From Mobula birostris (Eukaryota), in assembly GCF_030028105.1 (NCBI RefSeq), contig NC_092391.1, forward strand, positions 27,501,223 to 27,565,222: DNA of 64,000 bases. Reading direction: 5' to 3'. How positions within the stretch are numbered: the first letter of the stretch is position 1; every line of letters starts with the position of its first letter. The position numbers and the translations under genes were made by a program. Shown piece by piece: positions 66 to 56,965 of this stretch. A model generated the notes under the pieces. The model saw nothing but the letters and a program-made list of their open reading frames with translations, searched no databases and was not told the origin of the DNA.

Positions 66-155
66 CTGATGAAGGGTCTCGGCCTGAAACGTCGACTGTT
101 TACTCTTTTCCATAGATGCTGCCCGATCTGCTGAGTTCCTTCAGCATCTTGTGAG
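66..155 (+). mobile_element. Short 3'-terminal fragment of Penelope-like element (PLE) beginning at a hammerhead core
   Basis: CTGATGA(66-72)-AGGGTCTCGGCCT-GAAACGTC(86-93)-GACTG followed by the PLE tail 'catagatgctgcc..ctgctgagttcct.cagca' that is also seen at 17254-17350. The 5' strand of stem I is missing. Confidence 0.8.
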
Positions 156-726
156 TGAGTATTACCTTGAAAACGCTGTAGATTTTGGCCTCCCAAGTCA
201 AGGAAGGATTTTTTTTTGCCTCAAAAGAGTGCAATGCAGGTTGACCAATTGAAAACAGAGGGCTGAGCAATGCGGAGCAATTGATGCGGTAACACTCCAC
301 TGAACGAACACTGCAGAATGTTCAGGGGATCTTTCTCTGCAACAAGTGAAAGGCAACACTAGAGACCATCATCCTTCATAATATGGACAGAATATAAAAC
401 ATGAGGAGTGCTGGAACAGGGAAGCAGATGATGTTTTTGTCTGAGCACAAGATGTGCTTCCTCTGTCTAGCAGACGCTTATTACCAACAAAGTACTGAGC
501 AAGTCACTAACTTAACCAGAGGTCTAAGTAGGAAGTGTGGCAACCAAGTTGTGCGCAGGCTCAACCTCCTTACTAACAAAAGCTGAAGGCAGACAACAGA
601 CACAAAAACTTGTGTTATCCTGCACTTTTTCCAAGGTCAGGACCCATTGAGCACATTGTAGTTGGGAGGAAGCTGAGGAGAAAATGGGGCAGACGGATAG
701 TTAACATTGGAAGAGAAGTTAGCCAG

Positions 727-1822
727 GACAGTGTGACACTCCCTCAGTACTGTCCCTCTGACAGTGTGACACTTCCTCAGTACTGTCCTCTGACAGTCTG
801 ACACTCCCTCGGTACTGTCCCTCTGACAGTCTGACACTCCCTCGGTACTGTCCCTCTGACAGTATGACACCCCCTCGGTACTGTCCCTCTGACAGTGCGA
901 CTCTCCCTCGGTACCGTCCCTCCGACAGTGCAACACCCCCTCGGTACTGTCCCTCTGGCAGTGCGACACTCCCTCGGTACCGTCCCTCTGATGGTGTGAC
1001 ACTCCCTCAGCACTGTCCCTCTGGCAGTGTGACACTCCCTCAGTACTTCCCCTCTGACAGTGTGACACTCCTTCAGTACTTCCCCTCTGACAGTGTGACA
1101 GTTCCTCAGTACTGTCCCTCCGACAGAGTGACACTCCCTCAGTACTGTCCCTCTGACAGTGTGACACTCCCTCAGTACTTCCCCTCTGACAGTGTGACAG
1201 TTCCTCAGTATTGTCCCTCTGACAGTGTGACACTCCCTCAGTACTGTCCCTCCGACAGTGTGACACTCCCTCAGTACAGTCCCTCTGACAGTGTGACACT
1301 CCCTCCGTACTGTCCCTCTGACAGTGTGACACTCCCTCAGTACTGTCCCTCTGACAGTGTGACACTCCCTCAGCACTGTCCCTCTGACAGTGCGACACTC
1401 CCTCAGTACTGTCCCTCTGACAGTGCGACACTCCCTCAGTACTGTCCCTCCGACAGTGCGACACTCCCTCAGTACTGTCCCTCTGACAGTGTGACACTCC
1501 CTCAGTACTTCCCCTCTGACAGTGTGACACTCCTTCAGTACTTCCCCTCTGACAGTGTGACAGTTCCTCAGTACTGTCCCTCCGACAGAGTGACACTCCC
1601 TCAGTACTGTCCCTCTGACAGTGTGACACTCCCTCAGTACTTCCCCTCTGACAGTGTGACACTCCCTCAGTACTGTCCCTCCGACAGTGTGACACTCCCT
1701 CAGTACAGTCCCTCTGACAGTGTGACACTCCCTCCGTACTGTCCCTCTGACAGTGTGACACTCCCTCAGTACTGTCCCTCTGACAGTGCGACACTCCCTA
1801 TGTACCATCCCTCTGACAGTGT
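727..1822 (+). repeat. 33-bp minisatellite array (~33 units), consensus CAGTACTGTCCCTCTGACAGTGTGACACTCCCT
   Basis: Direct tandem repeat. The 11-aa periodicity of ORFs 637..1794, 777..1853 and 864..1859 reflects the 33-bp period. Confidence 0.98.
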
Positions 1823-1922
1823 AGAGCTCTGTTGGTGCTTTGGAGAAGAACAATCATGATATGATATTTTGTTGGGTTGTGGAGTGAGCTAATTGAAAGT
1901 TAGGCTTTATACCTACACAGTA

Positions 1923-2050
1923 GAAGAGGGGTCTCAGCCTGAAATGTTGACTGTTTACTCTTTTCCACACATGCTGCCTGAGCTGTTGAGTTACTCCAGC
2001 ATTTTGTATGTGTTGGTTTGGATTTCTCGCACCTGCAGACTTTCTCATGT
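1923..2050 (+). mobile_element. PLE 3'-tail fragment with decayed hammerhead
   Basis: gaagaggggtctcagcctgaaatgttgactgt...atgctgcctgagctgttgagttactccagcattttg...cctgcagactttctc. Confidence 0.75.
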
Positions 2051-2271
2051 TTATTATAAACCTCTTCCTTGGATGCAATAGGATCTTTAATTTCTTCTGT
2101 CAGCCACTGATGAACTGTTTCTCTTTTTGAGCTTTGGTGGGTTCTTAACAGAATATATATTTTTCCACAATAGATGCATTGCTTATCCAAATATTTGCAG
2201 CTGTCTGTCCAGTGATGTAGCTTTTACAGTATTTTCCCAGACAACTACAGCCACAGCCAATGAGATACCTT

Positions 2272-2780
2272 CACAAACAGGAGAATTTCTGCAGATGCTG
2301 GAAATCCAAAGCATGAACACAAAATGCTGGAGGAACTCAGCAAGTCAGGCAGCGTCTGTGGAAAAGAGTAAACAGTCAACGTTTCAGGGCGAGACCTCGG
2401 GACTGAGAAGGAAGAGGGCAGACGCCAGAATAAAAAAGTGGGGGGAGGTAGCAAGGAGGATAGCTGGAAGGTGACGGGTGAAACCTGGTGAGTGGAAAAT
2501 GTCACAGATTGGACAGGATGAAATATGATAGGAGAGAGGAGTGGACCGCAGTAGAAAGGAACAGAGGAGGAGACCTCGGGGGAAGTAATCGGCTGCTGAC
2601 ACGAGGTAAAAGGTTAAAGTGGGGAATAGAAGAGGGGTAGAATTTGTTAACTGGCAAGAGAAATCGATATTCATGCCGTCAGGTTGGAAGCTATCCAGAT
2701 GGAATTTAAGATGTTGTTCCTCCACCCTGATGATGGCCTCATGGTGGCGCAAGAGGAGGCCATGAACCGACATGTTGGAG
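2272..2780 (-). mobile_element. PLE 3' fragment (GIY-YIG C-terminus, 3'UTR and decayed hammerhead)
   Basis: ORF 2384..2773 begins MSVHGLLLRHHEAIIRVEEQHLKFHLDSFQPDGMNIDFS, homologous to the GIY-YIG end at 16830-16959. Confidence 0.88.
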
Positions 2781-2931
2781 GTTTACAAACTTGTCAGAAA
2801 CAGAAACTGTGTCATTGGGTCTTAGAATTATACAGAACATACTTGGGGCCTTTTTGAATTGTCCAGAGGACTGGGAGGACTTTAGAACTCAGCAAAGGAT
2901 GACCAAGGTATCGATAGAGGCAACATTGAAT

Positions 2932-3063
2932 CCTGCCGATGGGCGTCAGCCCGAAACGTCGACAGTTCTTTTCTCCATAGAAGCTGCCTGACCTGCTGAG
3001 TTTCTCCACCATTTTGTGTGTGTTGCTCGGGTTTCCAGCTTCAGCAGATTTTCTCTTGTTTGT
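2932..3063 (+). mobile_element. PLE 3'-tail fragment inserted in CR1 remnant
   Basis: ccgatgggcgtcagcccGAAACGTCGACagt...gctgcctgacctgctgagtttctccacca...cagcagattttctc. Confidence 0.75.
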
Positions 3064-5891: not shown

Positions 5892-7364
5892 AGAGTCTGG
5901 GATATTAAGGGACTCAGGGATGTGAGGTTAGTGCAAGAAGGGAACCGAGATGTCAGAGCACCCATGATTTAATGAATCTGAGCAGGTCCAATCTCCTGCT
6001 GCTCCTGATTCGAATGTTTTGCTCTTCCGATGGTGCAACCCTGAGCTGGGGGCATTTAGCTTTTTGACATGACGTCGCAGGAGGGGGCCTAGAATGTAGA
6101 ACCTCCTCACTCGTAGGCGAGTGCTGCGGTAAAGTCACCAAATTCTGCTCGCACAGGCAGTCTGTACTTGTATCTTCGTTCAGATCTGACCAGGTGCTCA
6201 TGGTTATTCGAGCAACGGTTGGCCCCTTCCTCTTGAACACTTCCGAGTCATAGGTGACCTCGGACAGCGCTGGAGGACTGCCACCACCTGTCCTCTAAAT
6301 CTCCTCCAAACTGGTCTTCGAGGTAGGTGAACCATTGCCGGCATCCTGTCCCAGCCGACGTTACCAACGTCAAGCCTGTGATCAAACGCTTGGGCTGAGT
6401 GAGCAACCTCAATCACACCAGACTCCTGAAGCAAGCACCCTACTCCAAGAGAGTGACGAAAATGGTCCGAGGGACTTCCCAATGCTCCTTGAGAAGGTGC
6501 TCGCTAGTTTATGGGGATCCCTGGCCTGCGACTTCTCAAGATGGCGAAGGAGCTTTTGGGAAGACACAGAGCCCTCCAAGTCTCAGTGGAGGCCTTGTAC
6601 ACATTGAAGGGATGGACAACACCATAACCCACACATCTCACCACCACCAGGTGATCCACTGCCTCAATGGTGGAACCTGTACAGAGCCCAGAGCATCACA
6701 GGAGCAGCGAGGAAGAGAGTCATTCTCAATTAATGAGAGACTGCCTGAGAAGAAGATGAAGAAACTTCTTCCACAGTGTTTCCCTCTTGAAATTCAGTTC
6801 AACACTTGGAGGCTGTTTGAAGAGCAGGTTCATTGAAGATCAAAGTCTCCTTCTCAAATGATGTGGACAAGGTCTCCTCCTCACCAACAGTCCTGGCATC
6901 CTGAATGCACCTCCCAGGATCACTTTGATCAGCCTGGGAAGTGCTCATTAAGGAACCTGCTTCCCTCTCTTCAGTAATCCAAACCGGTAGTGACGAGGAG
7001 GTCTCCTAATTGAAGAAGAAACAGCATGTATGTGGGGACAAGCAGAGTGGATCACTCCTTCTTCCAAACCTCGAGTCCCTCTGCTTTTGGAACGTTGCCC
7101 TTGTCAGGTTTCCCATCACAGGACGGGAGAGGAAAGACATTTAGAGTCTGGCTTAATATGTGGGCCCAGATTGTATGAAATTCCACAGTAAACAGGCAGG
7201 CAGCAGGAAACTACAGCTAATGAGCAATCGGCTGCGCAACCTGTCAGCAATCACCCAGAGGCCCCGCTCGGCTTTAATGAGCAACTTCGAATTTGTCAAC
7301 ACGGATTCTTCTTGACTTGACAGAATTCACTCCGCTACTGAGGAGAGCCAACTATCACTTGGAA

Positions 7365-8032
7365 CACACTGACCCTCACTGGAGATGGGTCACACACACA
7401 CTGACCCTCACTGGGGGACGGGTCCCACACACACTGACCCTCACTGGGGACAGGTCCCACACACACACTGACCCTCACTGGGGGACGGGTCCCACACACA
7501 CTGACCCTCACTAGGGACGGGTCCCACACACACACTGACCCTCACTGGGAGACAGGCCCCACACACACTGACCCTCACTGGGGGAACAGGTCACACACAC
7601 ACTGACCCTCACTGGGGGGACGGGTCCCACATACACTGACCCTCACTGGGGGACGGATCCCACATACACTGACCCTCACTGGGGATGGGTCCCACACACA
7701 CTGACCCTCACTGGGGGACAGATCCCACACACACTGACCCTCACTGGGGACGGGTCCCACACACACTGACCCTCACTGGGGGGACGAGTCCCACACACAC
7801 TGACCCTCACTGGGAGACGAGTCCCACACACACTGACCCTCACTGGCTGATCGGTCCCACACACACACTGACCCTCACTGGAGGACGGGTCCCACACACA
7901 CACTGACCCTCACTGGGGGACGGTTCCCAAACACACTGACCCTCACTGGGGGCTGGGTCCCCCACACACTGACCCTCACTGGACGATAGGTTGCACGCAC
8001 ACTGATCCCGACTGGGGACAGGTCTCACACAC
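7365..8032 (+). repeat. ~30-32-bp minisatellite (~21 units), consensus CACACTGACCCTCACTGGGGGACGGGTCCCA
   Basis: Direct tandem repeat. Unit length varies with the (CA)n and G-run lengths. Confidence 0.97.
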
Positions 8033-8039
8033 GCTGATT

Positions 8040-8742: not shown

Positions 8743-9048
8743 TTGGCATGTGGCCAAGTGGTTAAGGCGTCTGTCTGGTGATCTGAAGGTCGCTAGTTCG
8801 AGCCTTGGCTGAGGCAGTGTGTTGTGTCCTTGAGCACGGCAACTTAACCACACATTGCTCTGCGACGACACCAGTGCCAAGCTGTACCGGCCCTAGTGCC
8901 CTTCCCCTGGACAACATCGGTGGCATAGAGAGGGGAGACTTGCAGCATGGGCAACTGCCGGTCTTCCATACAACCTTGCCCAGGCCTGCACCCTGGAAAC
9001 CTTCCAAGGCGCAAATCCATGGTCTCACGAGACGAACGGATGCCTGTA
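8743..9048 (+). mobile_element. tRNA-derived SINE with CORE-like segment and RTE-like tail
   Basis: A box TGGCCAAGTGG (8751-8761), B box AGTTCGAGCC (8795-8804), gtgtccttgagcacggcaacttaacc, TSD aggtggagtg (8733-42) / aggtagagtg (9049-58). Confidence 0.85.
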
Positions 9049-10385: not shown

Positions 10386-10389
10386 GGGG

Positions 10390-11568
10390 GCAGTGCTGAG
10401 AGAGTGCTGCACTGTTAGAGGGACAGTACTGAGGGAGTATCACACTGTCCGAGGGACAGTACTGAAGGAGTGTCACACTGTCAGAGGGACAGTACTGAGG
10501 GAGTGTCACACTGTCCGAGGGACAGTACTGAGGGAGTGTCACACTGTCCAAGGGACAGTACTGAGGGAGTGTCACACTGTCAGAGAGACAGTACTGAGGG
10601 AGTGTCACACTGTCAGAGGGACGGTACTGAGGGAGTGTCACACTGTCTGAGGGACAGTACTGAGGGAGTGTCACACTGTCAGAGGGACGGTACTGAGGGA
10701 GTGTCACACTGTCAGAGGGTCAGTACTGAGGGAGTGTCACACTGTCGGAGGGGCAGTACTGAGGGAGCGTCACACTGTCGGAGGGACAGTACTGAGGGAG
10801 TGTCACACTGTCAGAGGGACAGTACTGATGGGGTGTCACACTGCTGGAGGGACGGTACTGAGAGAGCGTCACACTGTCAGAGCATCAGTACTGAGGGAGT
10901 GTCACACTGTCAGAAGGACAGTACTGAGGAAGTGTCACACCGTCAGAGGGACAGTACTGAGGGAGTGTCACACTGTCAGAGGGACAGTACTGAGGGAGTG
11001 TCACACTGTCAGAGGGACAGTACTGAGGGAGTGTCAGACTGTTAGAGGGACAGTACTGAGGGAGTGTCACAGTGTCAGAGGGACAGTACTGAGGGAGCGT
11101 CACACTATCAGAGGGGCAGTACTGAGGGAGTGTCACAGTGTCAGAGGGACAGTACTGAGGGAGCGTCACACTATCAGAGGGGCAGTACTGAGGGAGTTTC
11201 ACACTGCCAGAGGGACAGTACTGAGGGAGTGTCACAGTGTCAGAGGGACAGTACTGAGGGAGCGTCACACTATCAGAGGGGCAGTACTGAGGGAGTGTCA
11301 CAGTGTCAGAGGGACAGTACTGAGGGAGCGTCACACTATCAGAGGGGCAGTACTGAGGGAGTTTCACACTGTCAGAGGGACAGTACTGAGGGAGTGTCAC
11401 ACTGTCAGAGGGGCAGTACTGTGGGAGCGTCACACTGTCAGAGGGGCAGTACTGAGGGAATGCCACACAGTCAGAGGGCAGAAATGAGGGAGTGTTGCAC
11501 TGTTGGAGGGACAGTACTGAAGCAGGGTTACAGTTTAAGAGGGACAATACTGAGGGATTGCTGCACTG
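10390..11568 (-). repeat. 33-bp minisatellite array (~35 units), same family as 727-1822 but opposite orientation
   Basis: Tandem AGGGAGTGTCACACTGTCAGAGGGACAGTACTG; the edge units read GAGTGCTGCACTG. Confidence 0.98.
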
Positions 11569-11614: not shown

Positions 11615-12800
11615 AGATGGAATGGTGTGGGTGTCGCCAGCTAAGCCGGCATTTATTGGCCATCCTTAGCTGTCCATGAGAAGGTGGTGATGAGCTGCCT
11701 TCTTGAACGGCTGCGGTCCCTGAGGTGTAGGTTCACCCACAGTGCTGTTAGGGAGGGAATTCCATGATTTTAACCCAGCAACGGTGAAGGATTGGCAATA
11801 CGTTTCCAAGTCAGGATGGTGAGTGACTTGGAGGGGGATTTCCAAATGGTGGTGTTCCCAGGTGTCTGCTGTTCTCGTCCTTCTAGATGGTAGTGTTTGT
11901 GCGTCTGGAAGGTGCTGCCTTAGGAACTTTGGTGTGTTGTTGCAGTGCATCTTGTCGATCGTACATACTGCTGCAACTGCTCGTTGATGGTGGAGGGATT
12001 GGATGCTTGTGGAAGGGGTACCAATCAAGTGGGCTGACTTGTGTTGGATGGTGTCAAGTTTCTTGAGTGTTGATGGAGCTCCACTCACCCAGGCGAGTGG
12101 CAAGTATTCCATTACACTCCTGACCTGAGCCTTGTAGATTGCGGACAGCCTTTGGGGAGTCAGGAGGTGAGTCACGTTCCGCAGGATTCCTAGCCTTTAA
12201 CCTGCTCTGGTAGCCACTGTGTTTATATGGCTCGACCAGTTCGGTTTCCTGTCAATGGTAACCCCCAGGATGTTGATAGTGGGGGATTCGGTGATGGTGA
12301 TGCCACTGAATGTCAAGGGACGATGGTTAGAGCCTCTCTTGTTGAGATGATCATTGCCTGGCACTTGCATGGCTCGAGCGTTATGCGCCACTTGTCAGCC
12401 CCAGCCTGGATATTGCCCACATCCTGCTGCCTTGGGGTCTGAACTGCTTCACTATCTGAGGAGTCACAAATGGTGCAGAACATCCCCACTTTTGACTTTA
12501 TGGAGCAGCTGAGGAAGGTTGGTCCTAGGACACTTCCCTGAGGAACTCCTGCAGTGATGCCCTGAGGATGACATGATGGACCTCCAACCACAACAACCAC
12601 CTTCCTTTGTGTCAGCTATGATTCCAACCAGCAGAGGGTTTTCTCTCTAATTCCCATTGACTCCATTTTAGCTTGGGCACCTTGATACCATACTCGGTCA
12701 AATGCTGCCTTGATGTCGAGGGCTATCACTCTCACCTCACCTCTGGTATTCAGCTCTTTGGTCCATGTTTGGATCAAGGAGGTGATGAGGTCAGGAGCTT
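11615..12800 (-). mobile_element. CR1/L2-group LINE, 5'-truncated (RT core to 3' tail)
   Basis: GVPQGSVLGPT, ILGVTIDRKPNWSSHI, LTPQRLSAIYKAQVRSVMEY, SWNSLPNS; tail ggatggccaataaatgccggcttagctggcgacacccac. Confidence 0.9.
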
Positions 12801-15199
12801 GAAATTATGTTAATATAATTTTGATATTATGCTTTTGAATTTGGAAAATAAAATGTACGACTGACAAAAAAATAGTCGGCTACTATTACAAATTACTGTG
12901 AAAGCAATGCCTCAGAAATATTGCAGCAATACTGTGATTTCATTTTGTCGTGTCTGAGAAATTTAACACTCGTTCAATTCAAATGTCCACTGATATGCTG
13001 AACAACGTGCTTAGAAACAAGCTCCCACAAACAGTAACATGATGACTATGAATTTGACAATGCAGATTATGGGTTGACTATCATTCAGGACCCCAGGGAG
13101 AACCAACTAATTAGTCCTCATCTCCAAGAGGTCAGTGGAGCCATTAATGGACACAGTTGCTCGGAGCCTGAGTTCTGCCTCTGTCGTCACTTAGCTTCTG
13201 CTTGGCCATGTCATTGACTGATTTGTCGTGGATCTCAGCTTGATCTGTTCACCTCCTCTGCTGAGCATTCTCCGAGCTCAGTTGATATGTAGTCACACGT
13301 GGCCAAAAGCAAGTCCCCAGTGCAGCTGGCTGCACACATTGTGTGAATCTCAGAGGAAGCTCCACCAACTGCTCCCCGACCTCATCACAGCAAACACTGT
13401 CAGCCCCGGCGACCTCAGAAATATGCCGTTGTCCTCCAGTTAACAACACACTGACATCTGGCAGGAAGCCATTCCCAACTTCAAACTTCTGGCACAGATG
13501 GCTGAGCCGGATACATTCTACAAAATGTTCCATACCAATCCGACCGCCTGATGACACACCCAGTGTACTAGTCTGGAACAGAGAGGCAACTGATCAAATA
13601 TACCATCAAAGTTTAACACTTTCTGTTCTGGGTACGGTGTGGAGTTCCTCTGTACCATCGCACAATAACATAGATGGTTGGGCTGAGCCCAGATCCAATC
13701 CTGACCTCCGGTGCAGTCTGTGACCATGCAGGGTTTCTCAGGATGCTCTCGTTTCATAAGACCATAAGACACAGGAGCAGAATTAGGCCATTCAGCCCAT
13801 CAAGTCTGCTCTATCATTTCGGCATGTCTGATCCCAGATCCCACTCAACCCTATACACATGCCTTCTCGCCATATCCTTTGATGCTCTGACCAATCAGGA
13901 AACTATCAACTTCCACCTTAAATATACCAATGGAGTTGGCCTCCACTGCAGAGAGTAGATTCACTACTCTCTGGCAAAAAAAAATCCGCCTTACATCTGT
14001 TCTAAAAGATAGCCCCTCAATTTTGAGGCTGTACCCTCTAGTTCTGGATACCCCCACCAGAGGAAACATCCCCTCCACATCTAACCTATCTAGTCTTTCC
14101 AACATTAGGTTGGTTTCAATGAAATTCCAACCCCTGCCCCCCCCCACATTCTTCTAAATTCCAGTGAGTACAGGCCCAAAGCTGCCAAACACCCCTCATA
14201 TGTTAACCCCTTCATTCCTGGAATCATCCTTGTGAACCTCCTCTGGACTCGCTCCAATGACAGCACGTCCTTTCTGAGAAAAGGGCCCAAAACTGTTGAC
14301 AATACTCCAAATGCAGCCTGACTAGTGTCTTATAAAGTCCTAGCATTATCTCCTTGATTTTATATTCTATTCCCCTTGAAATAAATGCCAACATTGCATT
14401 TGCCTTCTTTACCACAGACTCAATGTGTAAATTAACCTTCTGAGAGTCTTGTGCAAGGATTCCCAAGTCCCTCTGCACCTCTGATGTTTGAATTTTCTAC
14501 CCAGTTAGATAATAGTCTGCACTATTGTTCCTTTTAACAAAATACATTATCACATATTTCTCAACACTATTCCATCTGCCACTTTTTTGCCCAGTCTTCC
14601 AATTTGTGTAAGTCCTGCTGCAATCGCAATGCTTCCTCAGCACTACCTACCCCTCCACCTAACTTTGTATCATCCGCAGACTTTGCCACAAAGCTATCAA
14701 TTCCATTATCCAAATCATTGACAAACAATGTGAAAAGTTGTGGTCCCAATACTGACCTCTAAGGAACACCACAAGTCACTGGCAGCCAACCAGAAAAGGC
14801 CCCTTTTATTCCCAGTTGCTGCCTCCTGCCTGTCACCCATTCCTCTGTCCATGCCAGTATCTTTTCTGTAATGTCATAGGATTTTATCTTGTTAAGCAGT
14901 CTCATGTGTGGCAGCTTATCACATGCCTTCTGAAAATCCAAGTAAATGTCAACACTGCCTCTCCTCTTCCACCTGCTTGTTACTTCCTCAAAGAGCTGTA
15001 ACAGATTTATCAGGCAAGATTTCTCTTTACCAGAAACCATGCTGACTGACTTATTTTAGCATTAGTCTCCAAGTAGCTCGAAACCTCATCCTTAATGGCG
15101 GAAACAACAGGAATTCTGCAGATGCTGGAAACTCAAGCAACACACATAAAAGTTGCTGGTGAACGCAGCAGGCCAGGCAGCATCTGTAGGAAGAGGTGC

Positions 15200-15235
15200 A
15201 GTCGACGTTTCAGGCCGAGACCCTTCGTCAGGACT
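15200..15235 (-). ncRNA. Minimal type-I hammerhead ribozyme, intact core (GUC cleavage triplet)
   Basis: Minus strand AGTC-CTGACGA-AGGGTCTCGGCCT-GAAAC-GTC-GACT. Stem I AGTC/GACT; stem III is only the ACGT palindrome. Confidence 0.8.
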
Positions 15236-15527
15236 AACTGAAGGAAGAGTGAGTAAGGGATTTGAAAGTTGGAGGGGGAGGGGGAGATCCAAAATGATAG
15301 GAGAAGACAGGAGGGGGAGGGATGGAGCCAAGAGCTGGACAGGTGATAGGCAAAAGGGATACGAGAGGATCATGGGACAGGAGGTCCAGGAAGAAAGACA
15401 AGGTGGGGGGGACACAGAGGATGGGCAAGAGGTATATTCAGAGGGACAGAGGGAGAAAAAGGAGAGTGAGAAAAAGAATGTGTGCAAAAAAATAAGTAAC
15501 AGATGGGCTACGAGGGGGAGGTGGGGC

Positions 15528-16085
15528 CTAGCGGAAGTTAGAGAAGTCGATGTTCATGTCATCAGGTTGGAGGCTACCCAGACGGAATATAAGGTGTTGT
15601 TCCTCCAACCTGAGTGTGGCTTCATCTTTACAGTAGAGGAGGCCGTGGATAGACATGTCAGAATGGGAATGGGATGTGGAATTAAAATGTGTGGCCACTG
15701 GGAGATCCTGCTTTCTCTGGCGGACAGAGCGTAGATGTTCAGCAAAGCGGTCTCCCAGTCTGCGTCGGGTCTCGCCAATATATAAAAGGCCACATCGGGA
15801 GCACCGGACGCAGTATATCACCCCAGTCGACTCACAGGTGAAGTGTTGCCTCACCTGGAAGGACTGTCTGGGGTCCTGAATGGTGGTAAGGGAGGAAGTG
15901 TAAGGGCATGTGTAGCACTTGTTCCGCTTACACGGATAAGTACCAGGAGGGAGATCAGTGGGGAGGGATGGGGGGGACGAATGGACAAGGGAGTTGTGTA
16001 GGGAGCGATCCCTGCGGAATGCAGAGAGAGGGGGGGAGGGAAAGATGTGCTTAGTGGTGGGATCCTGTTGGAGGTGGTGGAAATT
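15528..16085 (-). pseudogene. PLE ORF fragment: Cys-rich linker plus GIY-YIG endonuclease (5'-truncated, otherwise open)
   Basis: GTYPCKRNKCYTCPY linker, then GVIYCVRCSRCGLLYIGETRRRLGDRFAEH...HFNSTSH...EEQHLIFRLGSLQPDDMN. Confidence 0.92.
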
Positions 16086-16087
16086 AC

Positions 16088-16959
16088 GGACTCTCACAGC
16101 TATCTGGACTATTCCTCTTCTCACCCTGTCTCTTGCAAAAACGCTATCCCCTTCTTGCAATTCCTCCGCCTCCGCCGCATCTGCTCTCAGGATGAGGCTT
16201 TTCATTCTAGGACAAGGGAGATGTCGTCCTTTTTAAAGAAAGGGGCTTCCCTTCCTCCACTATCAACTCTGCTCTTAAACGCATCTCCCCCATTTCACGT
16301 ACGTCTGCTCTCACTCCATCCTCCCGCCACCCCACTAGGAATAGGGTTCCCCTGGTCCTCACCTACCACCCCACCAGCCTCCGGGTCCAACATATTATTC
16401 TCCGTAACTTCCGCCACCTCCAACGGGATCCCACCACTAAGCACATCTTTCCCTTCCCCGCCCCACATTCCGCAGGGATCGCTCCCTACGCAACTCCCTT
16501 GTCCATTCGTCCCCCCCATCCCTCCCCACTGATCTCCCTCCTGGTACTTATCCGTGTAAGCGGAACAAGTGCTACACATGCCCTTACACTTCCTCCCTTA
16601 CCACCATTCAGGGCCCCAAACAGTCCTTCCAGGTGAGGCAACACTTCACCTGTGAGTCGACTGGGGTGATATACTGCGTCCGGTGCTCCCGATGTGGCCT
16701 TTTATATATTGGCGAGACCCGACGCAGACTGGGAGACCGCTTTGCTGAACATCTACGCTCTGTCCGCCAGAGAAAGCAGGATCTCCCAGTGGCCACACAT
16801 TTTAATTCTACATCCCATTCCCATTCTGACATGTCTATCCACGGCCTCCTCTACTGTAAAGATGAAGCCACACTCAGGCTGGAGGAACAACACCTTATAT
16901 TCCGTCTGGGTAGCCTCCAACCTGATGGCATGAACATCGACTTCTCTAACTTCCGCTAA
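16088..16959 (+). pseudogene. PLE ORF fragment: RT thumb, linker and GIY-YIG, frameshifted
   Basis: TDSHSYLDYSSSHPVSCKNAIPFLQFLRLRRICS, frameshift near 16232, then GIY-YIG ORF 16633..16959. Confidence 0.92.
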
Positions 16960-17253: not shown

Positions 17254-17289
17254 AGTCCTGACGAAGGGTCTCGGCCTGAAACGTTGACT
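17254..17289 (+). ncRNA. Minimal type-I hammerhead ribozyme, intact core (GUU triplet)
   Basis: AGTC(17254)-CTGACGA(17258-64)-AGGGTCTCGGCCT-GAAAC(17278-82)-GTT-GACT. Confidence 0.75.
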
Positions 17290-23345: not shown

Positions 23346-23371
23346 TCAGTTGCACCTATTTGCCCATATAC

Positions 23372-41959: not shown

Positions 41960-42802
41960 TACACAGTGGCCACTTTATTAGGCACATAAGTACACCTTGT
42001 CATAAATGCAAACATCTTATCAGCCAATCATGTGCAGCTACTCAATGCATAAAAGCATGCAGGCATGGTCAAGAGATTCAGTTGTTGCTCAGATCAAACA
42101 TCAGAATGGGGGAAGAAATGTGACCTAAGTGACTTTGACTGTGGAATGATTGTTGGTGCCAGATGGGGTGGTTTGAGTATATCAGAAACTGCTGATCTGC
42201 CAGGTTTTTCATGCACAAAAGTCTCTAGAGTTGATACAGTGTGGTGTTGGTCCTTCTGGCCCTTTGAGTCATGCCGCCATGATATCCCCTGATTTAATTC
42301 TAATCTAATCATAGGACAATTTACCATGACAAACTAACCTACCAATCAGCTTTTCTTTGGACTGTGGGAGGAAGCTGGAGAACCTGGAGGAACCCCGCAC
42401 GGTTGTGGAGAACGTGCAAACTCCTTACAGGCAGTGATGGGGATTGATACCCGGGTCGCTGTACAGTAAAGCGTTGTATCAACCATTGAGTTACCGTGCC
42501 GCCCAACAGAGAACGGAGCGGAAAACAAAAGACATCCAGTGAGCGGCAGCTCTGTGGGCGAAAACGCCTCGTCAGTGAGAGAGGTCTGAGGAGAATTGCC
42601 ATTCCGGTTCAATCTGACAGAACCGGTCTATCGCTCAAATAACCACGCGTTACAGCAGCAGTGCGCAGATGAGCATCTCTGTACGCACAACACGTCAAAC
42701 CTTGAAGCGGATGGGCTGCAGCAGCAGAAGGCCATGAACATACACTTAATGACCACTTTATTAGGTACTGGAAAATCCGTGATAAAGTAGTCACTGAGTG
42801 TG
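41960..42802 (+). mobile_element. Internally deleted Tc1 transposon with nested V-SINE
   Basis: TIRs cagtggccactttattagg and ataaagtagtcactgagtg; MGKKCDLSDFDCGMIVGARWGGLSISETADL..KTSSERQLCGRKRLV. Confidence 0.88.
42241..42504 (-). mobile_element. HE1/V-type tRNA SINE
   Basis: ctttggactgtgggaggaagctggag..ggagaacgtgcaaactcc (reverse V domain); head gggcggcacggtaactcaatggtt. Confidence 0.8.
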
Positions 42803-44367
42803 CCCAGAATCCTCTCTCCAGTATTACGGTGATGTTCTTCATAATCAAGAGTGAGTCAAGATTCACAACCAATAGCACACGTGACTTGTGGCGAGGGCTG
42901 CATACCATCGCAGACTTCAGAGCCAAACGTTGTGATGCCGCCAACATCGCGGCTTCTCTCCGAGATGAGCTCAGTCGCGTTTACGTTCGGTTCGATGTCG
43001 CTAACTCTGAGCCTCCGAGGAAAGCCACTGCTACAACGTGCAACCTGGTTGTCTCTGAGGCTGAGGTACGCAGATGTTTCCAACGAGTGGACAGTCGCAA
43101 GGCTGCGGGACCGGACGGCATCCCAGGGCGAGTACTCAGGATGTAAGCAGCACTACTGGCAGGTGTATTTACAGTCATTTTTAATCTCTCCCTCTCCCAG
43201 TGTAGAGTGCCCTCCTGCTTCAAAACATCCACCATTGTCCCTGTACCAAGGTAACATGCCTGAACGACTGGAGTCCTGTCGCACTCACCTCAGTAATAAG
43301 CAAATGCTTTGAGAGGCTGGTCAAAGATTACATTTACAGCTTGCTACCACCCAAACTGGACCCACTACAATTCGCCTAACGACATAACTGATCGACAGAC
43401 GATGCAATAGCCACTGCTCTACATGCCGTCCTTACACATCTGGAGAAGGAAGATGCTTATTTGAGAATGCTGTTTTTGGACTACAGTTCAGCATTCAACA
43501 CCATAGTTCCATCCAGGCTCGACAAGAAGCTCAGAAAACTCAGCCTTGACCCTCTCCTGTGTAGATAGAACCTGAACTTCCCGTCCGATCGCCGGCAGGT
43601 GGTAAGAGTGGGCTCACCCCTCTGACTCTCAACACAGGAGCTCCTCTGGGCCGTGTACTAAGTCCCCTCCTTTACTCCCTGTATTCCCATGACTGTATCG
43701 CCACCCACAGCTCCAATCTGCTAATTAAATTTTATGACAACTCTGCATCGATTGGCCTTATCTCAAACAATAATGAGGTGGCCTACAGGGAAGAAGTCAT
43801 CTCTCTGACACAGTGGTGTCAAGAAAACAACCTCTCCCTCAATGTTGCAAACACAAAGGAGCTGGTTGTGGATTACAGGAGGAATGGAGACGGGCTCACC
43901 CCCATTGACATCAATGGATCTGGGGTTGAGAGGGTAAACAGCTTTGAGTTCCTCAGCATCCACATCACCGAGGACCTCACGTGATCTGTACACACCAGCT
44001 GTGTGGTGAAAACGGCATAACAACGCCTCTTTCACCTCAGATGATTGAGGAAGTTTGGTATGGACCCTCAAATCTCAGGAACTTTCTACAGAGACACAAC
44101 TGAGAGCATCCTGACTGGCTGCATCACAGCCTAGTATGGGAACTGTACCTCCCATAATCGCAGGATTCTGCAGAGAGTGGTGCGGACAGCTTAGCGTATC
44201 TGTAGATGTGAACTTCCCATGACCCAGGACATTTACAAGGACAGGTGTGTAAAAAGGGCCTGTAGGATCATTGGAGACCCGAGTCACCCCAACCACAATC
44301 TGCTACCATCCAGGAAACGGTACCATAGCATAAAAGCCAGGACCAGCCTGGTGGACAGCTCGTTCCA

Positions 44368-46842
44368 ACACACACAAAATGCTGGTGAACGCAGCGGGCC
44401 AGGCAGCATCTATAGGAAGAAATACAGTCGATGTTTCGGGTTGAGACCCTTCGTGAGGACTAACTGAAAGAAGAGCTAGTAAGAGATTTGAAAGTGGGAG
44501 GGAGGGGGGAGATCCGAAATGATAGGAGAGGACAGGAGGGGGAGGGATGAAGCCAAGAGCTGGGAAGTTGATTGGCAAAAGAGATACAAGGCTGGAGAAG
44601 GGCAAGTATCATAGGACGGAAAGCCTTGGAAGAAAGAAAGGAGAGGGGAGCACCAGAGGAAGATGGTGAACAGGCAAGGAGTTATTGTGAGAGGGAAAGA
44701 CAGGAAATAAATAAATAATAAATTAGGGATGGGGTAAGAAGGGGAGGAGGGGCATTAATGGAAGTTAGAGAAGTTAATGTTCATGCCATCAGGTTGGAGG
44801 CTACCCAGACAGAATATAAGGTGTTGTTCCTCCAACCTGAGTGTGGCTTCATCTTGACAGTAGAGGAGGCCATGGATAGACATATCGGAATGGGAATGGG
44901 ATGTGGAATTAAAATGTGTGGCCACTGGGAGATCCTGCTTTCTCTGGCGGACAGAGCGTAGGTGTTCAGCAAAGCGGTCTCCCAGTCTGCGCCGTGTCTC
45001 ACCAATACATAGAAGGCCACACTGGGAGCACCAGACACAGTATATCACACAGCCGACTCACAGGTGAAGTGTCGCCTCACCTGGAAGAACTGTCTGGGGC
45101 TCTGAATGGTGATGAGGGAGGAAGTGTAAGGGCATGTGTAGCAGTTGTCCTGCCTACAAGGATAAGTGCCAGGAGGGGGATCGGTGGGAGGGGATGGGTG
45201 GGGGGTGGAACGAATGGACAAGGGAGTTGCATAGGGAGTGAGCCCTGTGGAAAGTAGAGATTTAGATTATTTTTAGATTTAAATTAGATTATGAGGACAC
45301 TCAGTCCTCGTTTATTGTCATTTAGAAATGCATGCATTAAGAAATGATACAATGTTCCTCCAGAATGATATCACAAGAAACACAGGACAAACCAAGACTA
45401 AAACTGACAAATCCACATAATTATAACATATAGTTTCAACAGTGCAAAGCAATACCATAATTTGATAAAGAGCAGACCATGGGCACGGTAAAAAAAAGTC
45501 TCAAAGTCCCGATAGACTCATCATCTCACACAGGCGGCAGAAGGGAGAAACTCTCTCTGCCATGAAACTCCAAGCGCCGCAAACTTGCCCATGCAGCACC
45601 ATTGGAAGCACCCGACCGCAGCCGACTCTGAGTCCGTCTGAAAACTTCAAGCCTCCGACCAAGCACCATCCTCTGCCGAGTGCTTCGACCCTGCCCCGGC
45701 CGCTGAGCAACAAGCAAAGCCGAGGACTCGGGGCCTTCTCCTCCAGAGATTCTGGATCACACAGTAGCAGCAGCAGTGAAACAGGCATTTCAGAAATTTC
45801 ACCAGATGCTCCTCCGTGCTCTCACGTCCGTCTCCATCAGATCAGGATTGTGCACGACACCCTACTTGACAGATAACAGATATCACCACCGGAGTGGCAC
45901 CATCTTCTCCTCTCCTCCTGGGGGTGGGGTGGGGTGGGGGAGAGAAAGATGTGCTTGGTGGTGGGATCCCATTGGAGGTGGCGGAAGTTGCAGAGAATAA
46001 TATGTTGGACCCGGAGGCTGGTGGGGTGGTAGGTGAGGACAAGAGGAACCCTATTCCTGTGGGGTGGCAGGAGGATGGGGAGACAGTCCTTCCAGGTGAG
46101 GCGACACCTCACCTGTGAGTCGGCTGGGGTGATATACTGCGTCTGGTGCTCCCAATGCAGCCTCCTATATACTGGCGAGACCTGACGCAGACTGGGAGAT
46201 CGTTTCGCTGAACACCTACACTCTGTCTGCCAGAGGAAGCAGGATCTCCCACTGGCCACACATTTTAATTCCACGTCCCATTCCAATTCCAATATGTCAG
46301 TCCACAGCCTCCTCTGCTGCCGAGATGAAGCCACACTCAGGTTGGAGGAACAACACCTTATATTCCGTCTGGGTAGCCTCCAACCTGATGGCATGAACAT
46401 TGATTTCGCGAACTTCCGTTAATGCCCCTCCTCCCTTTCTTACCCCATCCTTTATTTATTTATTTATCTATCTATCTATCCTCTCTTTCCCTCTCACAAT
46501 AACTCCTTGCCTGTTCTTCATCTTCCTCTGGTGCTCTCCTCCTTTCTTTCTCCCAAGGCCTTCCATCCCGTGGTACTCCCCCTCCCCCAGCCTTTTGCCA
46601 ATCAACTTCCCAGCTCTTGGCTTCATCCCTCCCCGTCCTGACTTCTCCTATCATTTCGGGTCTCCTCTTCCCCCTCCCACTTTCAAATCTATTACTATCT
46701 CTTTTTTCTGTTAGTCCTGACGAAGGGTCTCGACCCAAAACATCGGCTGTACTTCTTCCTATAGATGCTGCCTGGCCTGCTGCATTCACCAGCATTTTGT
46801 GTGTGTTGCTTGAATTTCCAGCATCTGCAGATTTTCTCGTGT
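44368..46842. mobile_element. Inverted (head-to-head) PLE insertion with ~16-bp TSD and nested retroposon
   Basis: GIY-YIG on minus (44755..45048) and plus (~46085-46420) strands. TSD TGGACAGCTcgTTCCA (44352-67) / TGGACAGCTtcTTCCA (46843-58). Confidence 0.92.
45258..45916 (-). mobile_element. ~650-bp AAGATGG-headed non-autonomous retroposon (second copy)
   Basis: Reverse-complement homology to 23372-24024, including the head (catcttctcc 45901-10) and the (AGATT)n tail. Confidence 0.8.
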
Positions 46843-48091
46843 TGGACAGCTTCTTCCACCAGGTAATCTGGTTAACTCACACTGATTTGAGTATATTCTC
46901 TGTTACTTTGACATGTTCTATTTATTATAAATTATAAATTACTATGATTGCATATTGCACATTTAGACGGAGATATAACATAAATATTTTTACTCCTCAT
47001 GTTTGTGAGGGATGTAAGCAATAAATTCATTTCAATTCAATTCAGTAGTGCAAATTCCTGTCCTTTCTCCCCCTCTAGCTCTGCCATGCTGGAACATTGA
47101 ACTGCCATTCTTGCCCATAATAGTTATTATATTGCAATCCCCTGTGCCTATCCATGCTCAAACTCTGAATTCAGAAGGGAATATGAAAATATGAAACCTT
47201 ATCTTACCCTCGGTCAATTAATTCCTTCTTAATCCATGCTCATGGGAGTGTAAGATTAGTCAATGCCACTTTTAACCCTTTAGTTTAATCCTTTTAGGCT
47301 TGATAACATTCGGCTTAAAGTCATAAAATTCACAAAGCACTAAAGAAAATCTCTAAGTACTTCACGACAATTGAGAGTGAATTTCAAAGTAATCTCCAGT
47401 TGCTCAGGAGGCATCTCAACAATTAATTGTGAAGTGTGAGTGTGTTTGATAAGCTTTCAGCACTTAAAGGTTAATGAGCCGGTTTAAGTAATTGAAAATC
47501 AAATGTCCAAAATACATAGCTCCTCAAACTGGAAACCTCCTCGATTTTCAGGAGTGAAACTGGGCAAAGAGCCAGAGCCGAGGGTCTGCTGGGCAGAAGT
47601 TAGGAGCAGAGCCTCTGGGTGTAAGAAGCCGTTTCATCTCCCTTGTATGTTGTCACAGTCCATCAGCTCGTTTGTGGACAACGGCTCAGTTTTACTGCTT
47701 GAGTAAAGGTAAGGCCCTTTCTGTGAGCAATTACACAGTCTCAAGGTCCCAGCAGCCATCAGAACTGAAATCATATTTCAAAAGCAATGCTATGAAGCAA
47801 GCTTATTAACTTGTCACACTGATTTTTCTGGAGGTTGAGGTGATGGAATCTTTCATCCCTTCCTATCCAACGTCATAGTCAATTGGTCTCAGGCTGGTTT
47901 TAGAGAAAAAGATTAAAGATTAGCTTTATTTGTTGCATGTACGTTGAAACAGACAGCAAAGTGCGTCACTTGTGTCAACGACTGTCACGTTGCGTTTAGT
48001 GCCAACGCACTATGCCCCCAACTTACCAACCCTAACCCGGACATCTTTTCTTGTGTCCTGTGTTGTCTGGCTGAATATTGTGTGTGTGCTG

Positions 48092-48188
48092 TGCAACACA
48101 CACACAAAATGCTGGTGAAGGCAGCAGGCCAGGCAGCATCTCTAGGAAGAGGTACAGTTGACGTTTCGGGTCGAGACCCTTCGTCAGT
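48092..48188 (-). mobile_element. PLE 3'-tail fragment ending at the hammerhead core
   Basis: Minus strand CTGACGA-A-GGGTCTCGACCC-GAAACGTC-AACTG; stem II GGGT/ACCC is intact. Confidence 0.8.
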
Positions 48189-48862: not shown

Positions 48863-49864
48863 CAAGTGTGGTAAATAAATGAATCTGGGTTCCTCCAGAA
48901 TCTTGTTTTTTGCTCTAAATTCCAGCGTCTGTAGTCTCTTGTAGTCCCATTTATCCTGATCTTCTGTACCAGCACTTGGTCGATAGCCTTATTGTGACTC
49001 AAGTGCTTGTAGAGAGACGCTTTCTGAAATACGAGAGGACCTGCCTTCAAACAATGCATCCCAGATTTCGAACCCCACCCTGGGCGAAAGAATTTTTCCT
49101 CGGATTCTCTGCGATCCTCTTTCTCCACATCTCTAATTTTAAACGTCTCGGTGTTGGGGAAAGGTTTCACACTCTCCCCCCATCTAGTTCCTTCATAATT
49201 CTGTTCACCTCTGTCACGTCACTTGTGGCATTCAAAAACCTAATTTATCGGAGGCTCTATGTAGACTTAATACAGACACTACAAACACTGCAGGGAGCAT
49301 CTGGCATGAGAAATGTGGCAGGTGCAAGCCATTTATCTTTGCCATTTAGAAATGGACGACTCTGAACTTATCCCACTCAATCTCCATATTCTATGGCTTT
49401 CTTAAAGATCAAAATGAGAACGATCTAATACTGGAGAACTCCCAGTGTCCAAGCATCTGGGGCCTTCCAGAGAAGGGAATTCCAAAGGTGAGCAAACTGA
49501 GGTCTGAACTGGAAGCTGATATGAGAGTTGTATTTATGAGACCTTTAGATAGGCACATGAATATGCAGAGAATGGAGAGCTCACGTATGGGCAATAGAGA
49601 TTTAGTTTAATTGGGTATCAGGTCCAGCATAGACATTGTGGGCTGAAGGGCCTTTTCCTGTGCTGTACTGTCCCTTGTTCTGTGTTCAGAAGTATTTCCA
49701 CTCATCTGTTTCAAGCAGAGGTCAGATTTCTAAATTTTTAAATTCCTCTAGTTTAGCACTTTACAAGCAGGGTAAACGTCCCCTCAGCAACCGCTCAGAA
49801 TTCCTCCCTGAATTTTTATACATTTTGATTAGATTATAATACCCTTTGTTATACATAATACGAG

Positions 49865-54410: not shown

Positions 54411-54564
54411 CACACATGGTCACAGAAAGGACAATGGGGACTCCACGCAGACAGCACCAGAAGTCAGGATTGAAGTTGAGTCTCTGGAGCTCTAAGGCAG
54501 CAGCACTACCCACTGCTTCACTGTATTGTCTATTTGGTCATCTTCAGAATCATGTCCCTGTGAG

Positions 54565-54895
54565 AAGCGCACAAAGTGCTGGAGGAACTCAGCAGTTCAG
54601 GCAGTGTCTATGCAAGGGAATAAACAGTCAATGTTTTGTGCCAATATCCTTCATCAGGACTGGAAAGGAAGGGGGAAGAAGCCAGAATAAGAAGGTGGAA
54701 GGAAGAGAAGGAGTAGAAGCTTATCGGTAGATAGGTGAAGCTAGGTGAGGGAAAAAGTGGGTGGGATGAAGTGAGAAGCTGGGAGGTGATAGGTGAAAAA
54801 GATAAAGGGCTGAAGAAGAAGGAATCTGATAGGAGAGGAGAGTGGACCATGGGACGAAAGGAAGGAGGAGGTGCACCAGAGGGAGGTGATAGGTC
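54565..54895 (-). mobile_element. PLE 3'UTR/tail fragment with decayed hammerhead
   Basis: gtgctggaggaactcagcag..cagtcaatgttttgtgccaatatccttcatcaggactgg. Confidence 0.75.
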
Positions 54896-55814
54896 TCTAG
54901 GAACTTCCTGTGTGCAGATTTGTCATTGAGTTTCCTTCAATGCAAAAGTACTTAATCGGTTGTAAAAGATTTCGGAATGTCCTGAGATGGTCAGGATTTT
55001 TTTTATGAGAATTGAACTCTGACGATCAAGACAAGAATTCAGGACACCTCTTGATGGATTTAATCTCCCTAATGGTTTTACTTAGTTTTTGTAGTTTCAA
55101 AGAATTAAATGGATTCTTTGAAGACTTAATCTATTGCTGATTAAAGAGTACATTCACTTTCCAATAAACCCAAGCAATCAATGAACGGTTGACTATTCCA
55201 CTCTTAAGCAATCCGTCACTCAGTGCATGCTTGCTTTCTCACACTGATGTGCACATCGGTGCAGGACTTTGTTCAATATCTGACTATAATATTGGCTGCT
55301 ATTCCAATCAGATGCCTTGAAAACAACTTCAAACTGTTACAGTTTCTGCACTGGCTGCCACTGAGAGAAAATACAGGCGCTTGGGTATTGACCTTTAGTC
55401 AAGCTCAAACTTCAGTGTGCTACATTATTCTAAACCAAGCAAAGCTGACTGTCAAGTGGGCAGCCCATCTCCCGCCTTCAGCCTCCAATCACTTTGTTTT
55501 AAAACTCCTGCTCCATAATAAAGGTGCAGCCTCTTTGAAACAAAAACAGAAGATTCTGGAAGAACTCAGCCTCAGTGGAAAGACAAGTCGGTCAACATTT
55601 CAGGTTGGTGACCCTTCTTCAGAACTGGGTGGAAAGCAGAGGGGAACACAAGCCAAATGCTGGAGAAACTCAGACCAAAACCTCGACTGTACTTTTTTCC
55701 ATAGATTCTGCCTGGTCTGCTGAGTTCCTCCAGCATTTTGTGTGCGTTGCTTGGATTTCCAGCATCTGCAGATTTTCTCTTTGTGGAAAGTGGAGGGGGG
55801 AAAGTTATCAGTAA

Positions 55815-56603
55815 CACTGGACAACAATTATTTTCAAAAGTGTTGCTTCTTCAGAATTTTTTTGTTTATACTTGAAGCTGAACTCAAATATAATTTCAGA
55901 CTACTTGTATCATGTAGGAACTTGGAGAAACAAGAATTTATTGAACATAATGCATTTAATTGCATAGTGGCGCTGATGCTTTGCAATAGTTCAACTAAGC
56001 TAAGAATATTTTGCTGATGATTTTCATTTGTGCTCAGTATATGAGGCTTCTCTCTTAAGTATCCAATAATAATCAGCCAGATCTTTGATGGATTCCAGTT
56101 GCCCTGATACCATTTCTCCATGACCACAATGTCCTGATGAAACCTTTCACCATGCTCATCACTGATAGTGCCAAGATTTGCAGGGAAGAAGTCTAAATGG
56201 GAATGCAGAAAAGAAACCTTTAGTGACATGTTGCACTTCATGATTTTGTATGTTTGAATCATGTTGTCAACCATCTGCATGTAGATTGGTGCTCTATAGT
56301 TGCCAAGAAAAATTTCAACAACATCCTTAAATGTCTGCCATGTGATCTTCTCTGGTCCAAGTAGGGGTTTTTCGAATTGCCTGACATTGATGACCGTTTT
56401 GGTTTGTGGATCAACAAAAATGCCTTCCTTAATCTTGGCATCAATTATTCTGATCTGAATTATGAATTGAAATAATAAAGATAGGTGATTTTAAAAAATT
56501 GTGCATGATAGGGAAATTTCATGGTGATTTTCATGATCAGCAGTCCAAAATCCATAAGATACACCCAAAAGTATTCAGGAAACAAAATCTTTGTTTTCCA
56601 GTG
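55815..56603 (-). mobile_element. Internally deleted Chapaev3-like (CMC superfamily) DNA transposon
   Basis: TIRs CACTGGACAACAA / TTGTTTTCCAGTG with flanks TAA/TTA; transposase C-terminus DAKIKEGIFV..FLGNYRAP..CNMSLKVSFLHSHLDFFPANLGTISDEHGERFHQDI..YQGNW. Confidence 0.8.
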
Positions 56604-56829
56604 TTATCAAAGGCCTGCCGAATGGTCTCAGCCTGAAACACCGACTGTACTCTTTTCCATAGATGCTGCCTGGCTTACTGGGTCTCCAGCATTTTATGTT
56701 GCTTGGATTTCCAGCATCTTCAGATTTTCTTTTGTTTGTGATAGAAAACTATCCAGTAGTCCAGGGGTCCTTGATCCCTTGGTTAATGGTAAGGCTCCAT
56801 GGCATAAAAGAGGTTGGGAACCCCTGCTG

Positions 56830-56965
56830 TAGTCCTAATGAAGGATCTTGGCCCAAAACGTTGACTGCTCATTCCCTTCCATAGATGCTGCCTGACTGGC
56901 TGAGTTGCTCCAGCATTTTGTGTGAATTACTCAGGATTTACAGCATCTGCAGAATCTCTTGTGCT
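56830..56965 (+). mobile_element. PLE 3'-tail fragment with decayed hammerhead (another copy at ~56612-56740)
   Basis: agtcctaatgaaggatcttggcccaaaacgttgactg..gatgctgcctgactggctgagttgctccagca. Confidence 0.7.

Follow-up and report, generated by a model that had tools for sequence, protein, structure and literature searches.

A 64-kb window of genomic DNA (contig NC_092391.1, positions 27,501,223 to 27,565,222; the window is the whole 64,000-nucleotide stretch that was analysed) carries 21 copies, on both strands, of a motif of the minimal hammerhead ribozyme (min-HHR) type. We consider it probable that they derive from the end of a Penelope-like element (PLE) of a ray, likely one of the Neptune clade, and that they are mostly broken, 5′-truncated stubs, likely copied from RNA that was uncut at the hammerhead. 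As a ribozyme class the family adds only a host lineage, PLE min-HHRs having been in print since 2014.

The copies were collected by blastn and nhmmer with one copy and its downstream 100-130 nt as the query. Because this query recovers all 21 copies, to which a profile search contributes three fragments of tail alone (48885-48939, 55644-55673 and the weak 30831-30864, E 0.14), the repeat unit is the motif plus its tail rather than the 36-nt motif alone. A preliminary description of the window had listed about 20 occurrences on both strands; all 20 places hold the motif or a decayed form of it, and one further copy (55660-55781, +) was absent from that list. The exact pattern given there matches three times versus none in 100 shuffles, the core pattern at ≤3 mismatches matches eight times versus none in 100 shuffles, and a generic min-HHR descriptor that allows a 3-bp stem I finds five copies versus none in 100 block shuffles. 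An Rfam scan of the window returned no hammerhead family at E≤1, and the copies lack the looped helix III of the canonical type-I Rfam hammerheads. Motif pattern scans of metagenome, viral and genome contig collections gave no match.

Integrity was scored copy by copy from an alignment of the 21. All core positions are kept in 8/21 copies: the seven described earlier as intact, and 55622(-), which had been placed (near 55590) among the decayed ones, a list otherwise borne out in that each place holds the motif or a decayed form. An intact core is not an intact ribozyme, because stem I is lost in copies 66 and 48187, where its 5′ strand is replaced by host flank or target duplication, and the closing pair is broken in copy 39851. 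Core, a 4-5-bp stem I, a 4-bp stem II and the ACGU palindrome occur together in only three of the seven, 15231(-), 17258(+) and 33306(+); if a 3-bp stem I is accepted, 21529(-) and 55622(-) also pass, giving 5/21. The same strict and relaxed counts (3/21 and 5/21) apply to the combination of a short helix I, a helix II closed by the G10.1 pair and an unpaired base between 9 and 10.1. Per-copy scoring bears out the earlier statement that stem III is ACGU only, without loop 3; positions 15.2/16.2 are palindromic (CG or TG) in 15/20 copies with letters there, the others having CA or CC, and G12>A in six copies is the expected CpG decay. The density once put at one copy per ~3 kb is right for remnants (1 per 3.0 kb) and wrong for whole motifs (1 per 13-21 kb). 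The phrase ‘extremely abundant ribozyme family’ finds little or no support, given that 16-18/21 copies are broken or without stem I and that similar abundance is already published, thousands of min-HHRs per genome having been reported in coelacanth and Xenopus (Cervera 2014, PMC4209133; for this and the other papers cited, comparison is with the portions of text available). The copies and their parts are as follows.

15199-15236 (-): intact min-HHR with C3 at 15231, whose cut is predicted between 15204 and 15203
17253-17290 (+): intact min-HHR with C3 at 17258, whose cut is predicted between 17285 and 17286
33301-33338 (+): intact min-HHR, C3 at 33306, inside stub 33268-33431 with a 14-bp target duplication
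15103-16090 (-): left arm of a young head-to-head insertion, with endonuclease region, pyrimidine-rich untranslated region (UTR), HHR and long tail (~+128)
16091-17349 (+): right arm of the young insertion, with frameshifted remnant of reverse transcriptase (RT) thumb and linker, GIY-YIG endonuclease, UTR, HHR and short tail (~+92)
16441-16959 (+): GIY-YIG endonuclease of the right arm, with CX4CX2C linker and CCHH
16960-17255 (+): pyrimidine-rich stretch from endonuclease stop to stem I, ending in YAG at -3; 3′ UTR and pseudo-long terminal repeat (pseudo-LTR), candidate intron
15089-15102 and 17350-17363: 14-bp target duplication of the young insertion
66-163 (+): stub from C3 that keeps an intact core and lacks the 5′ strand of stem I; target duplication of 11 bp (56-66, 164-174)
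1922-2052 (+): decayed stub that begins near the core, without a significant target duplication
2275-2782 (-): older copy with endonuclease C-terminus, UTR, HHR with a 5-nt core deletion and long tail
2932-3061 (+): decayed stub that begins 1 nt before C3; its 7-bp duplication is, alone, not above chance
21477-21532 (-): short arm of a head-to-head pair of stubs; its core is intact and a stem I of 3 bp could form
21536-21666 (+): long arm of the 21477-21666 pair, starting inside the core; 15-bp target duplication around the pair
26922-27155 (-): decayed copy with ~130 nt of UTR and G12>A
27820-27936 (-): decayed stub of a divergent subtype, starting inside the core; 8-bp duplication
38053-38189 (+): decayed stub starting at the core
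39726-41310 (-): older long copy with RT and endonuclease remnants (40076-41310), UTR, HHR with core intact and stem I broken (C3 39851), and long tail
44364-46843 (both arms): second head-to-head insertion, endonuclease remnants in each arm, interrupted at ~45256-45926; 22-bp degenerate duplication
44426-44461 (-) and 46713-46748 (+): HHRs of the 44364-46843 insertion, core changes in both
48093-48187 (-): stub from C3 with short tail; the core is intact and stem I lacks its 5′ strand; duplication of 16 bp with a further 11 bases
48885-48939 (+): tail-only fragment without HHR (profile search E 4.7e-6)
54558-54890 (-): decayed copy with ~230 nt of UTR
55530-55673 (-): divergent-subtype copy, core intact, 3-bp stem I, C3 55622, preceded by tail fragment 55644-55673
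55660-55781 (+): opposite arm, starting in stem II
56611-56737 (+): decayed stub starting at stem I or core
56830-56963 (+): decayed stub; 11-bp target duplication overlapping the 5′ strand of stem I (microhomology)

As far as sequence can tell, the 21 copies belong to the published min-HHR class on every testable feature. The min-HHRs of Cervera (PMC4209133) are likewise of type I, with a U-rich flank, short helix I, CUGANGA plus an unpaired base, the G10.1 pair, GAAA-CG-UH and no loop 3; they too are mostly single dispersed motifs of truncated PLEs, with close opposite-strand pairs and thousands per genome. The Acropora Neptune motif in that list resembles the present one in its 4-bp stem II, 4-nt loop and CGU-C, whereas stem II has 7-8 bp in Schistosoma. 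The available text lists no chondrichthyan motif and does not describe clustering of 5′ ends at the hammerhead front edge, and the density here, one remnant per 3 kb, is that of a single window. The two divergent subtypes (55530-55673 and 27820-27936, both -) differ in loop II and linker, which suggests further PLE families with their own hammerhead variants.

The carrier is likely a PLE retrotransposon with a GIY-YIG endonuclease, probably of the Neptune clade. Pfam GIY-YIG (PF01541) scores above cut-off in frames 16441-16956(+) and 15531-16232(-), and tblastn and blastn place endonuclease remnants in cis with 6/21 copies (2404, 15231, 17258, 39851, 44457 and 46717), in each of which the HHR lies ~240-300 nt downstream of the endonuclease stop. 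The endonuclease carries a CCHH signature (CxxC situated between the motifs GIY and YIG, and two later H), the 16441-16959 frame holds the CX2-5CxxC linker as CKRNKCYTC, and broken RT remnants (40660-41310 and 16047-16453) are colinear with the RT-endonuclease (RT-EN) proteins P0011 and P0014; the window holds no full-length open reading frame. Endonuclease-bearing (EN+) PLEs of the Neptune and Nematis clades share the C-terminal GIY-YIG with CCHH and the linker, as well as 5′ truncation, an inverted adjacent copy and a 30-40-bp tail at one end, and differ from the window insertions, which are not in microsatellites (Craig 2021, PMC8557442). With this anatomy and the endonuclease in cis, the earlier identification of a minimal type-I hammerhead carried by a PLE stands, and so does that of an elasmobranch host: the host is likely a myliobatiform ray, because the closest protein homolog (95% identical) comes from Mobula hypostoma and the next from Hypanus sabinus. 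No paper on this elasmobranch family was found in a search that left subscription papers and Repbase outside; the available text of Li (2026, 10.64898/2026.07.22.740005) has PLE-related hammerhead repeats in one chondrichthyan.

Public contigs were compared from 7 of 24 listed runs, contig depth not being taken as copy number; in one DNA run, 112,280 contigs match a 600-base stretch, a figure that marks a very common family and is not a copy number. No Pfam host domain scored above cut-off in 210/277 frames of ≥70 amino acids, the rest of which overlapped known repeats. In ray gene models P0016, P0018, P0020 and P0025, element pieces in sense or antisense are read as host exons (ABHD14A, STARD3NL, CoA synthase).

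The copies also have the anatomy of EN+ PLE insertions: 5′ truncation, an inverted adjacent copy, a 30-40-bp tail at one end and target duplication are all present. Duplications of 11-22 bp surround seven insertions, namely the single stubs 66, 33306, 48187 and 56835 (11-16 bp) and the three pairs, with scores of 8.5-14 where the 99th percentile of the null is 9. Those at 27936 (8 bp; 2.2% of random pairs as good) and 2933 (7 bp; 6.8%) are marginal, and none above chance was found at 1921, 38058, 56615, 27020, 54657 or the 55622/55660 pair. The young pair 15103-17349, whose arms differ at 24/951 aligned bases, is a head-to-head insertion, and 44364-46843 and 21477-21666 are built like it. Measured from C3, 3′ ends fall at ~+92 to +99 or at +125 to +133, ~35 nt apart, with 21529 exceptional at +52; each of the three clear pairs combines an arm that has the long end with an arm that has a shorter one. 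Loose ends of contigs, their flanks heterogeneous, lie at these two 3′ ends too (302 contigs at 15102 in X1; 28 at 15137 in X9; 45-60 at 17350 in X10-X12). In Anolis, the PLE tail has been traced to two internal RT start sites, and both target strands are cut and extended (Frangieh 2024, PMC11167929). By analogy with that biochemistry, the endonuclease here would nick both target strands with a stagger, RT would start at one of two internal RNA sites downstream of the hammerhead and thereby produce the tail, and in the pairs each nick would prime a complementary DNA (cDNA), the two cDNAs joining head to head. The Anolis carolinensis Poseidon element PAc is similar in its pseudo-LTR-end hammerhead, its two RT starts 30-40 nt apart, the cutting and extension of both strands and copies that span an uncut hammerhead; unlike the present element it lacks the zinc linker, and its reading frame starts in stem II, whereas the window holds no full-length copy. 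Two further candidates were rejected: conserved structure in the tail (z -0.98 to +0.38, no consensus pairs) and a one-strand A-to-G editing scar in the young pair (6 A/G versus 3 G/A among 24 mixed differences). The young pair apparently sits in the 3′ end of a long interspersed element (LINE), which we take to be CR1/HER1-like. The repeat at ~45256-45926 that interrupts 44364-46843 has a translation resembling that of 23346-23828 (within 23298-23854).

The 5′ ends, whose boundaries were read by eye, bear on whether the template RNA had been cut. Ten of the 21 copies start ≤5 nt from C3, the others at +18, -25, -33, -135, -232 and further up. Under a constant-hazard model this cluster has a P of 4e-13, and of 1e-6 to 0.02 if only 6/20 or 5/17 are counted with backgrounds of up to 10%; the ten starts are spread, by eye, over several tail subtypes. 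Because none of 24 fragments starts at G1.1, the 5′ end expected of cut RNA, the templates spanned the cut site, and no joint at the cut bond occurs among the contig joints listed. Contigs of X10 have 23 loose ends at 17255 with AT-rich unrelated flank. Uncut RNA is the more likely template than a religated circle, because a circle leaves the preferred stop at the front edge unexplained and an RNA end there explains it. Many cDNAs would end at the hammerhead front edge, most likely since the RNA has its 5′ end (a transcription start or processing site) there. A second cluster of 5′ loose ends lies at 16891-16897 (3 contigs in X10, 7 in X12, 4 in X11); together with a tandem joint from the tail to 16897, present in X9 and X11, it marks a candidate pseudo-LTR start or transcription start.

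Conservation was taken as non-CpG differences from the column majority in 17 copies, four divergent copies being left out. Differing cells number 9/148 in the core, 7/101 in stem I, 15/119 in stem II and 44/201 in the linker after stem I, the last being above the core at p 3e-5. Stem pairing holds in 85.9% of cells versus 16-46% for slid partners, and in the contig tables common motif variants fall at 11.1 (C/U, either of which pairs with G10.1) and H17, with none in the core among the rows listed. The evidence for selection in active elements is modest, and for the dispersed copies there is none.

Several observations weigh against parts of the account given so far. The rest of the tail is not significantly less conserved than the core (62/594, p 0.12; 54/472, p 0.06). 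The covariation score is reached by 10/500 shuffles, with only three cells changed on both sides, and one-sided stem changes are mostly CpG transitions. The strongest 5′ loose end in the contigs (15235, 465 contigs) is mixed with a subfamily of differing upstream sequence, as is the larger signal at 17254; three of the ten clustered starts (1921, 38058 and 56615) have no significant duplication, their boundaries being read by eye, and two raw-read runs (X21, X22) gave no read matching the family. The linker that marks the probable Neptune membership is shared, in reduced form, by Nematis. Copies that span the cut site do not in themselves separate uncut RNA from cut-and-religated circles.

One account of the front edge invokes splicing, and we treat it as a tentative and rather unlikely lead. 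The hammerhead front edge would be a 3′ splice site and the ~300-nt stretch from stop codon to helix I a pseudo-LTR intron, with transcription starting ~60 nt upstream, inside the endonuclease gene; splicing would rewrite the 5′ strand of helix I and so switch the ribozyme, and the splicing machinery, or RNA cut at the acceptor, would stop RT there. A pyrimidine run ending in YAG 3 nt before C3 is present in 10/10 copies that retain upstream sequence, and the same letters also fit the initiator consensus YYANWYY. The Mobula birostris gene model P0019 passes from host-like sequence into VSPDEG, which would fit use of the upstream CAG, two Hypanus isoforms (P0004, P0022) leave the endonuclease at its last codon into differing sequences, and contig joints in probable RNA runs connect 16954-17257, 16934-17254 and 15235-15540; the second 5′-end cluster at 16891-16897 also speaks for splicing. 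[quoted passage not shown] Splicing is demonstrated in the fly and hypothetical here, and the fly hammerhead, unlike the copies here, possesses a small helix III, its helix I being 2 bp long. On the other side, the bridging joints have undetermined bases between their ends and may span diverged UTR, the gene models may be ab initio, 6/6 window copies are unspliced and 5/6, young copies included, lack GT at the stop codon. No spliced endonuclease-to-hammerhead protein occurs among 175 proteins, a second reading frame gave no protein, and no canonical GT-AG joint onto the acceptor is seen among the 15 of 218 joints listed. An acceptor alone, moreover, leaves cDNAs that stop without first-exon sequence unexplained. 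If the splicing account were true, the stubs of the ray genome would preserve, as a very large fossil record, the reason that PLEs retain their introns and seldom make use of cut RNA.

According to the published proposal of Cervera (2014), pseudo-LTR hammerheads cut, the ends ligate to a circle and RT crosses the religated site. This fits copies that span the site, and the suggested purifying selection on the core would also favour it, but a circle has no 5′ end and leaves the front-edge cluster unexplained, the G1.1 starts and cut-bond joints are absent as described above, and the available Anolis data favour unprocessed RNA: uncut RNA is there the main substrate, with no RNA reads ending at the cut site in the text available (Frangieh 2024, PMC11167929). 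We regard cutting and circle closure as improbable for the present family and retain uncut RNA as the likely template.

The preliminary description held the copies to be obligate dimeric ribozymes, and it is quite improbable, in our judgement, that the dispersed copies form an abundant set of RNA-cutting dimers, held together by ACGU pairing whether in cis or in trans. The palindrome is present in all three whole copies, and a nested double-hammerhead pairing can be drawn, at -8.9 to -9.5 kcal/mol. In a nearest-neighbour model with no tertiary or Mg term, however, two inactive monomers (-13.2 to -20.0 kcal/mol) and an inactive dimer (-21.5 to -28.3 kcal/mol) are both more stable than this active form, and each whole monomer folds as a rod in which core UGAY pairs with cut-site GUYG (-6.6 to -10.0 versus -6.0 kcal/mol for the open form). 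Whole copies number 3/21 (5 if relaxed), the window holds no whole same-strand tandem of the motif, and the nearest whole same-strand copies lie 6 kb (15231, 21529) and 16 kb (17258, 33306) apart, the young pair being on opposite strands. Dimerisation was already Cervera's hypothesis. In Schistosoma the monomer is inactive and dimers and trimers cleave weakly (PMC4209133), one of nine Xenopus dimer elements (a REP4 dimer) is strongly active and 8/9 are inactive, and the Anolis PLE hammerhead cleaves only with the element's protein and is dispensable for insertion (Frangieh 2024, PMC11167929). Obligate dimerisation in cis is therefore out of reach for the window copies, and protein help is at least as likely. 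By analogy with published min-HHRs, weak cutting after C17/U17 would be expected of the ribozyme in an active element, helped by the element's protein, a second copy or both, and insertion would not depend on it; cutting of host RNA by the dispersed stubs is unlikely. The GUC just before C3 was rejected on paper as another cleavage site, since neither stem I nor stem III can form around it.

The short copies had also been called non-coding derivatives; rather than forming their own family, they look like truncated products of insertion by the coding element, because they come in various tail subtypes, share the same two 3′ ends and have their own target duplications. It is very unlikely that they are a separate non-autonomous family, like a short interspersed element (SINE) or a retrozyme, with its own master beginning at the hammerhead. 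Ten copies do have a common start, the available text of Li (2026) derives animal non-LTR retrozymes of type-I units from PLE pseudo-LTRs, one chondrichthyan genome included, and a 52-nt tandem joint of the motif occurs in X10 and X12 contigs. Against this, the tail subtypes of the stubs are, by eye, also found in long coding copies, and stubs serve as arms of inverted pairs. Retrozymes are tandem units (~50-1000 bp, each with a whole hammerhead), whereas the window copies are dispersed or inverted and form no such array, 56611 and 56830 being separate decayed insertions. The 52-nt joint runs from 17302 to 17254 with three letters between and is retrozyme-like; a high-depth opposite-strand joint at 17255/17297 in the same contigs may be a stem I fold-back or a library artefact.

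That the motif is a look-alike, a hairpin of structural or regulatory use that has no part in catalysis at present, is barely credible. The missing Rfam match, the rod that buries the core and a core whose conservation does not clearly exceed that of most of the tail would suit it, but all 11 core positions, the diagnostic unpaired base and the palindrome fit the published class, the motif sits where a PLE is expected to carry it, and in the reports available related motifs cleave once stem III is lengthened or protein supplied.

Other repeats share the window. A 33-bp minisatellite forms two arrays of the same unit on opposite strands, at 727-1822 and 10387-11557 (33 and 35 copies), and a different 33-bp array lies at 7364-8037. 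A weak tRNA match at 8746-8816 (+; 25.4 bits, below the gathering score) is likely a tRNA-derived SINE head, and a near-perfect inverted repeat at 42738-42805, with ~28-bp arms and a chance miRNA-model match, is likely a small DNA-transposon or fold-back remnant. The 218-amino-acid frame 55837-56490 (-) contains HSHLDFFP and GERFHQD motifs without a Pfam match and is reminiscent of a Chapaev-type DNA transposase. LINE-like RT remnants with weak RVT_1 and ALKBH8_N matches lie at 43565-43981, 58735-59802, 11669-12196 and 17495-17866.

The role of the PLE hammerhead has been called unclear in print. In this family, sample size could matter: its copy number is very high, its activity recent, and the ends of its insertions mark the points at which RT began and stopped, so that a genome census alone could address whether templates were uncut or cut, priming from two sides and the nature of the RNA end at helix I.

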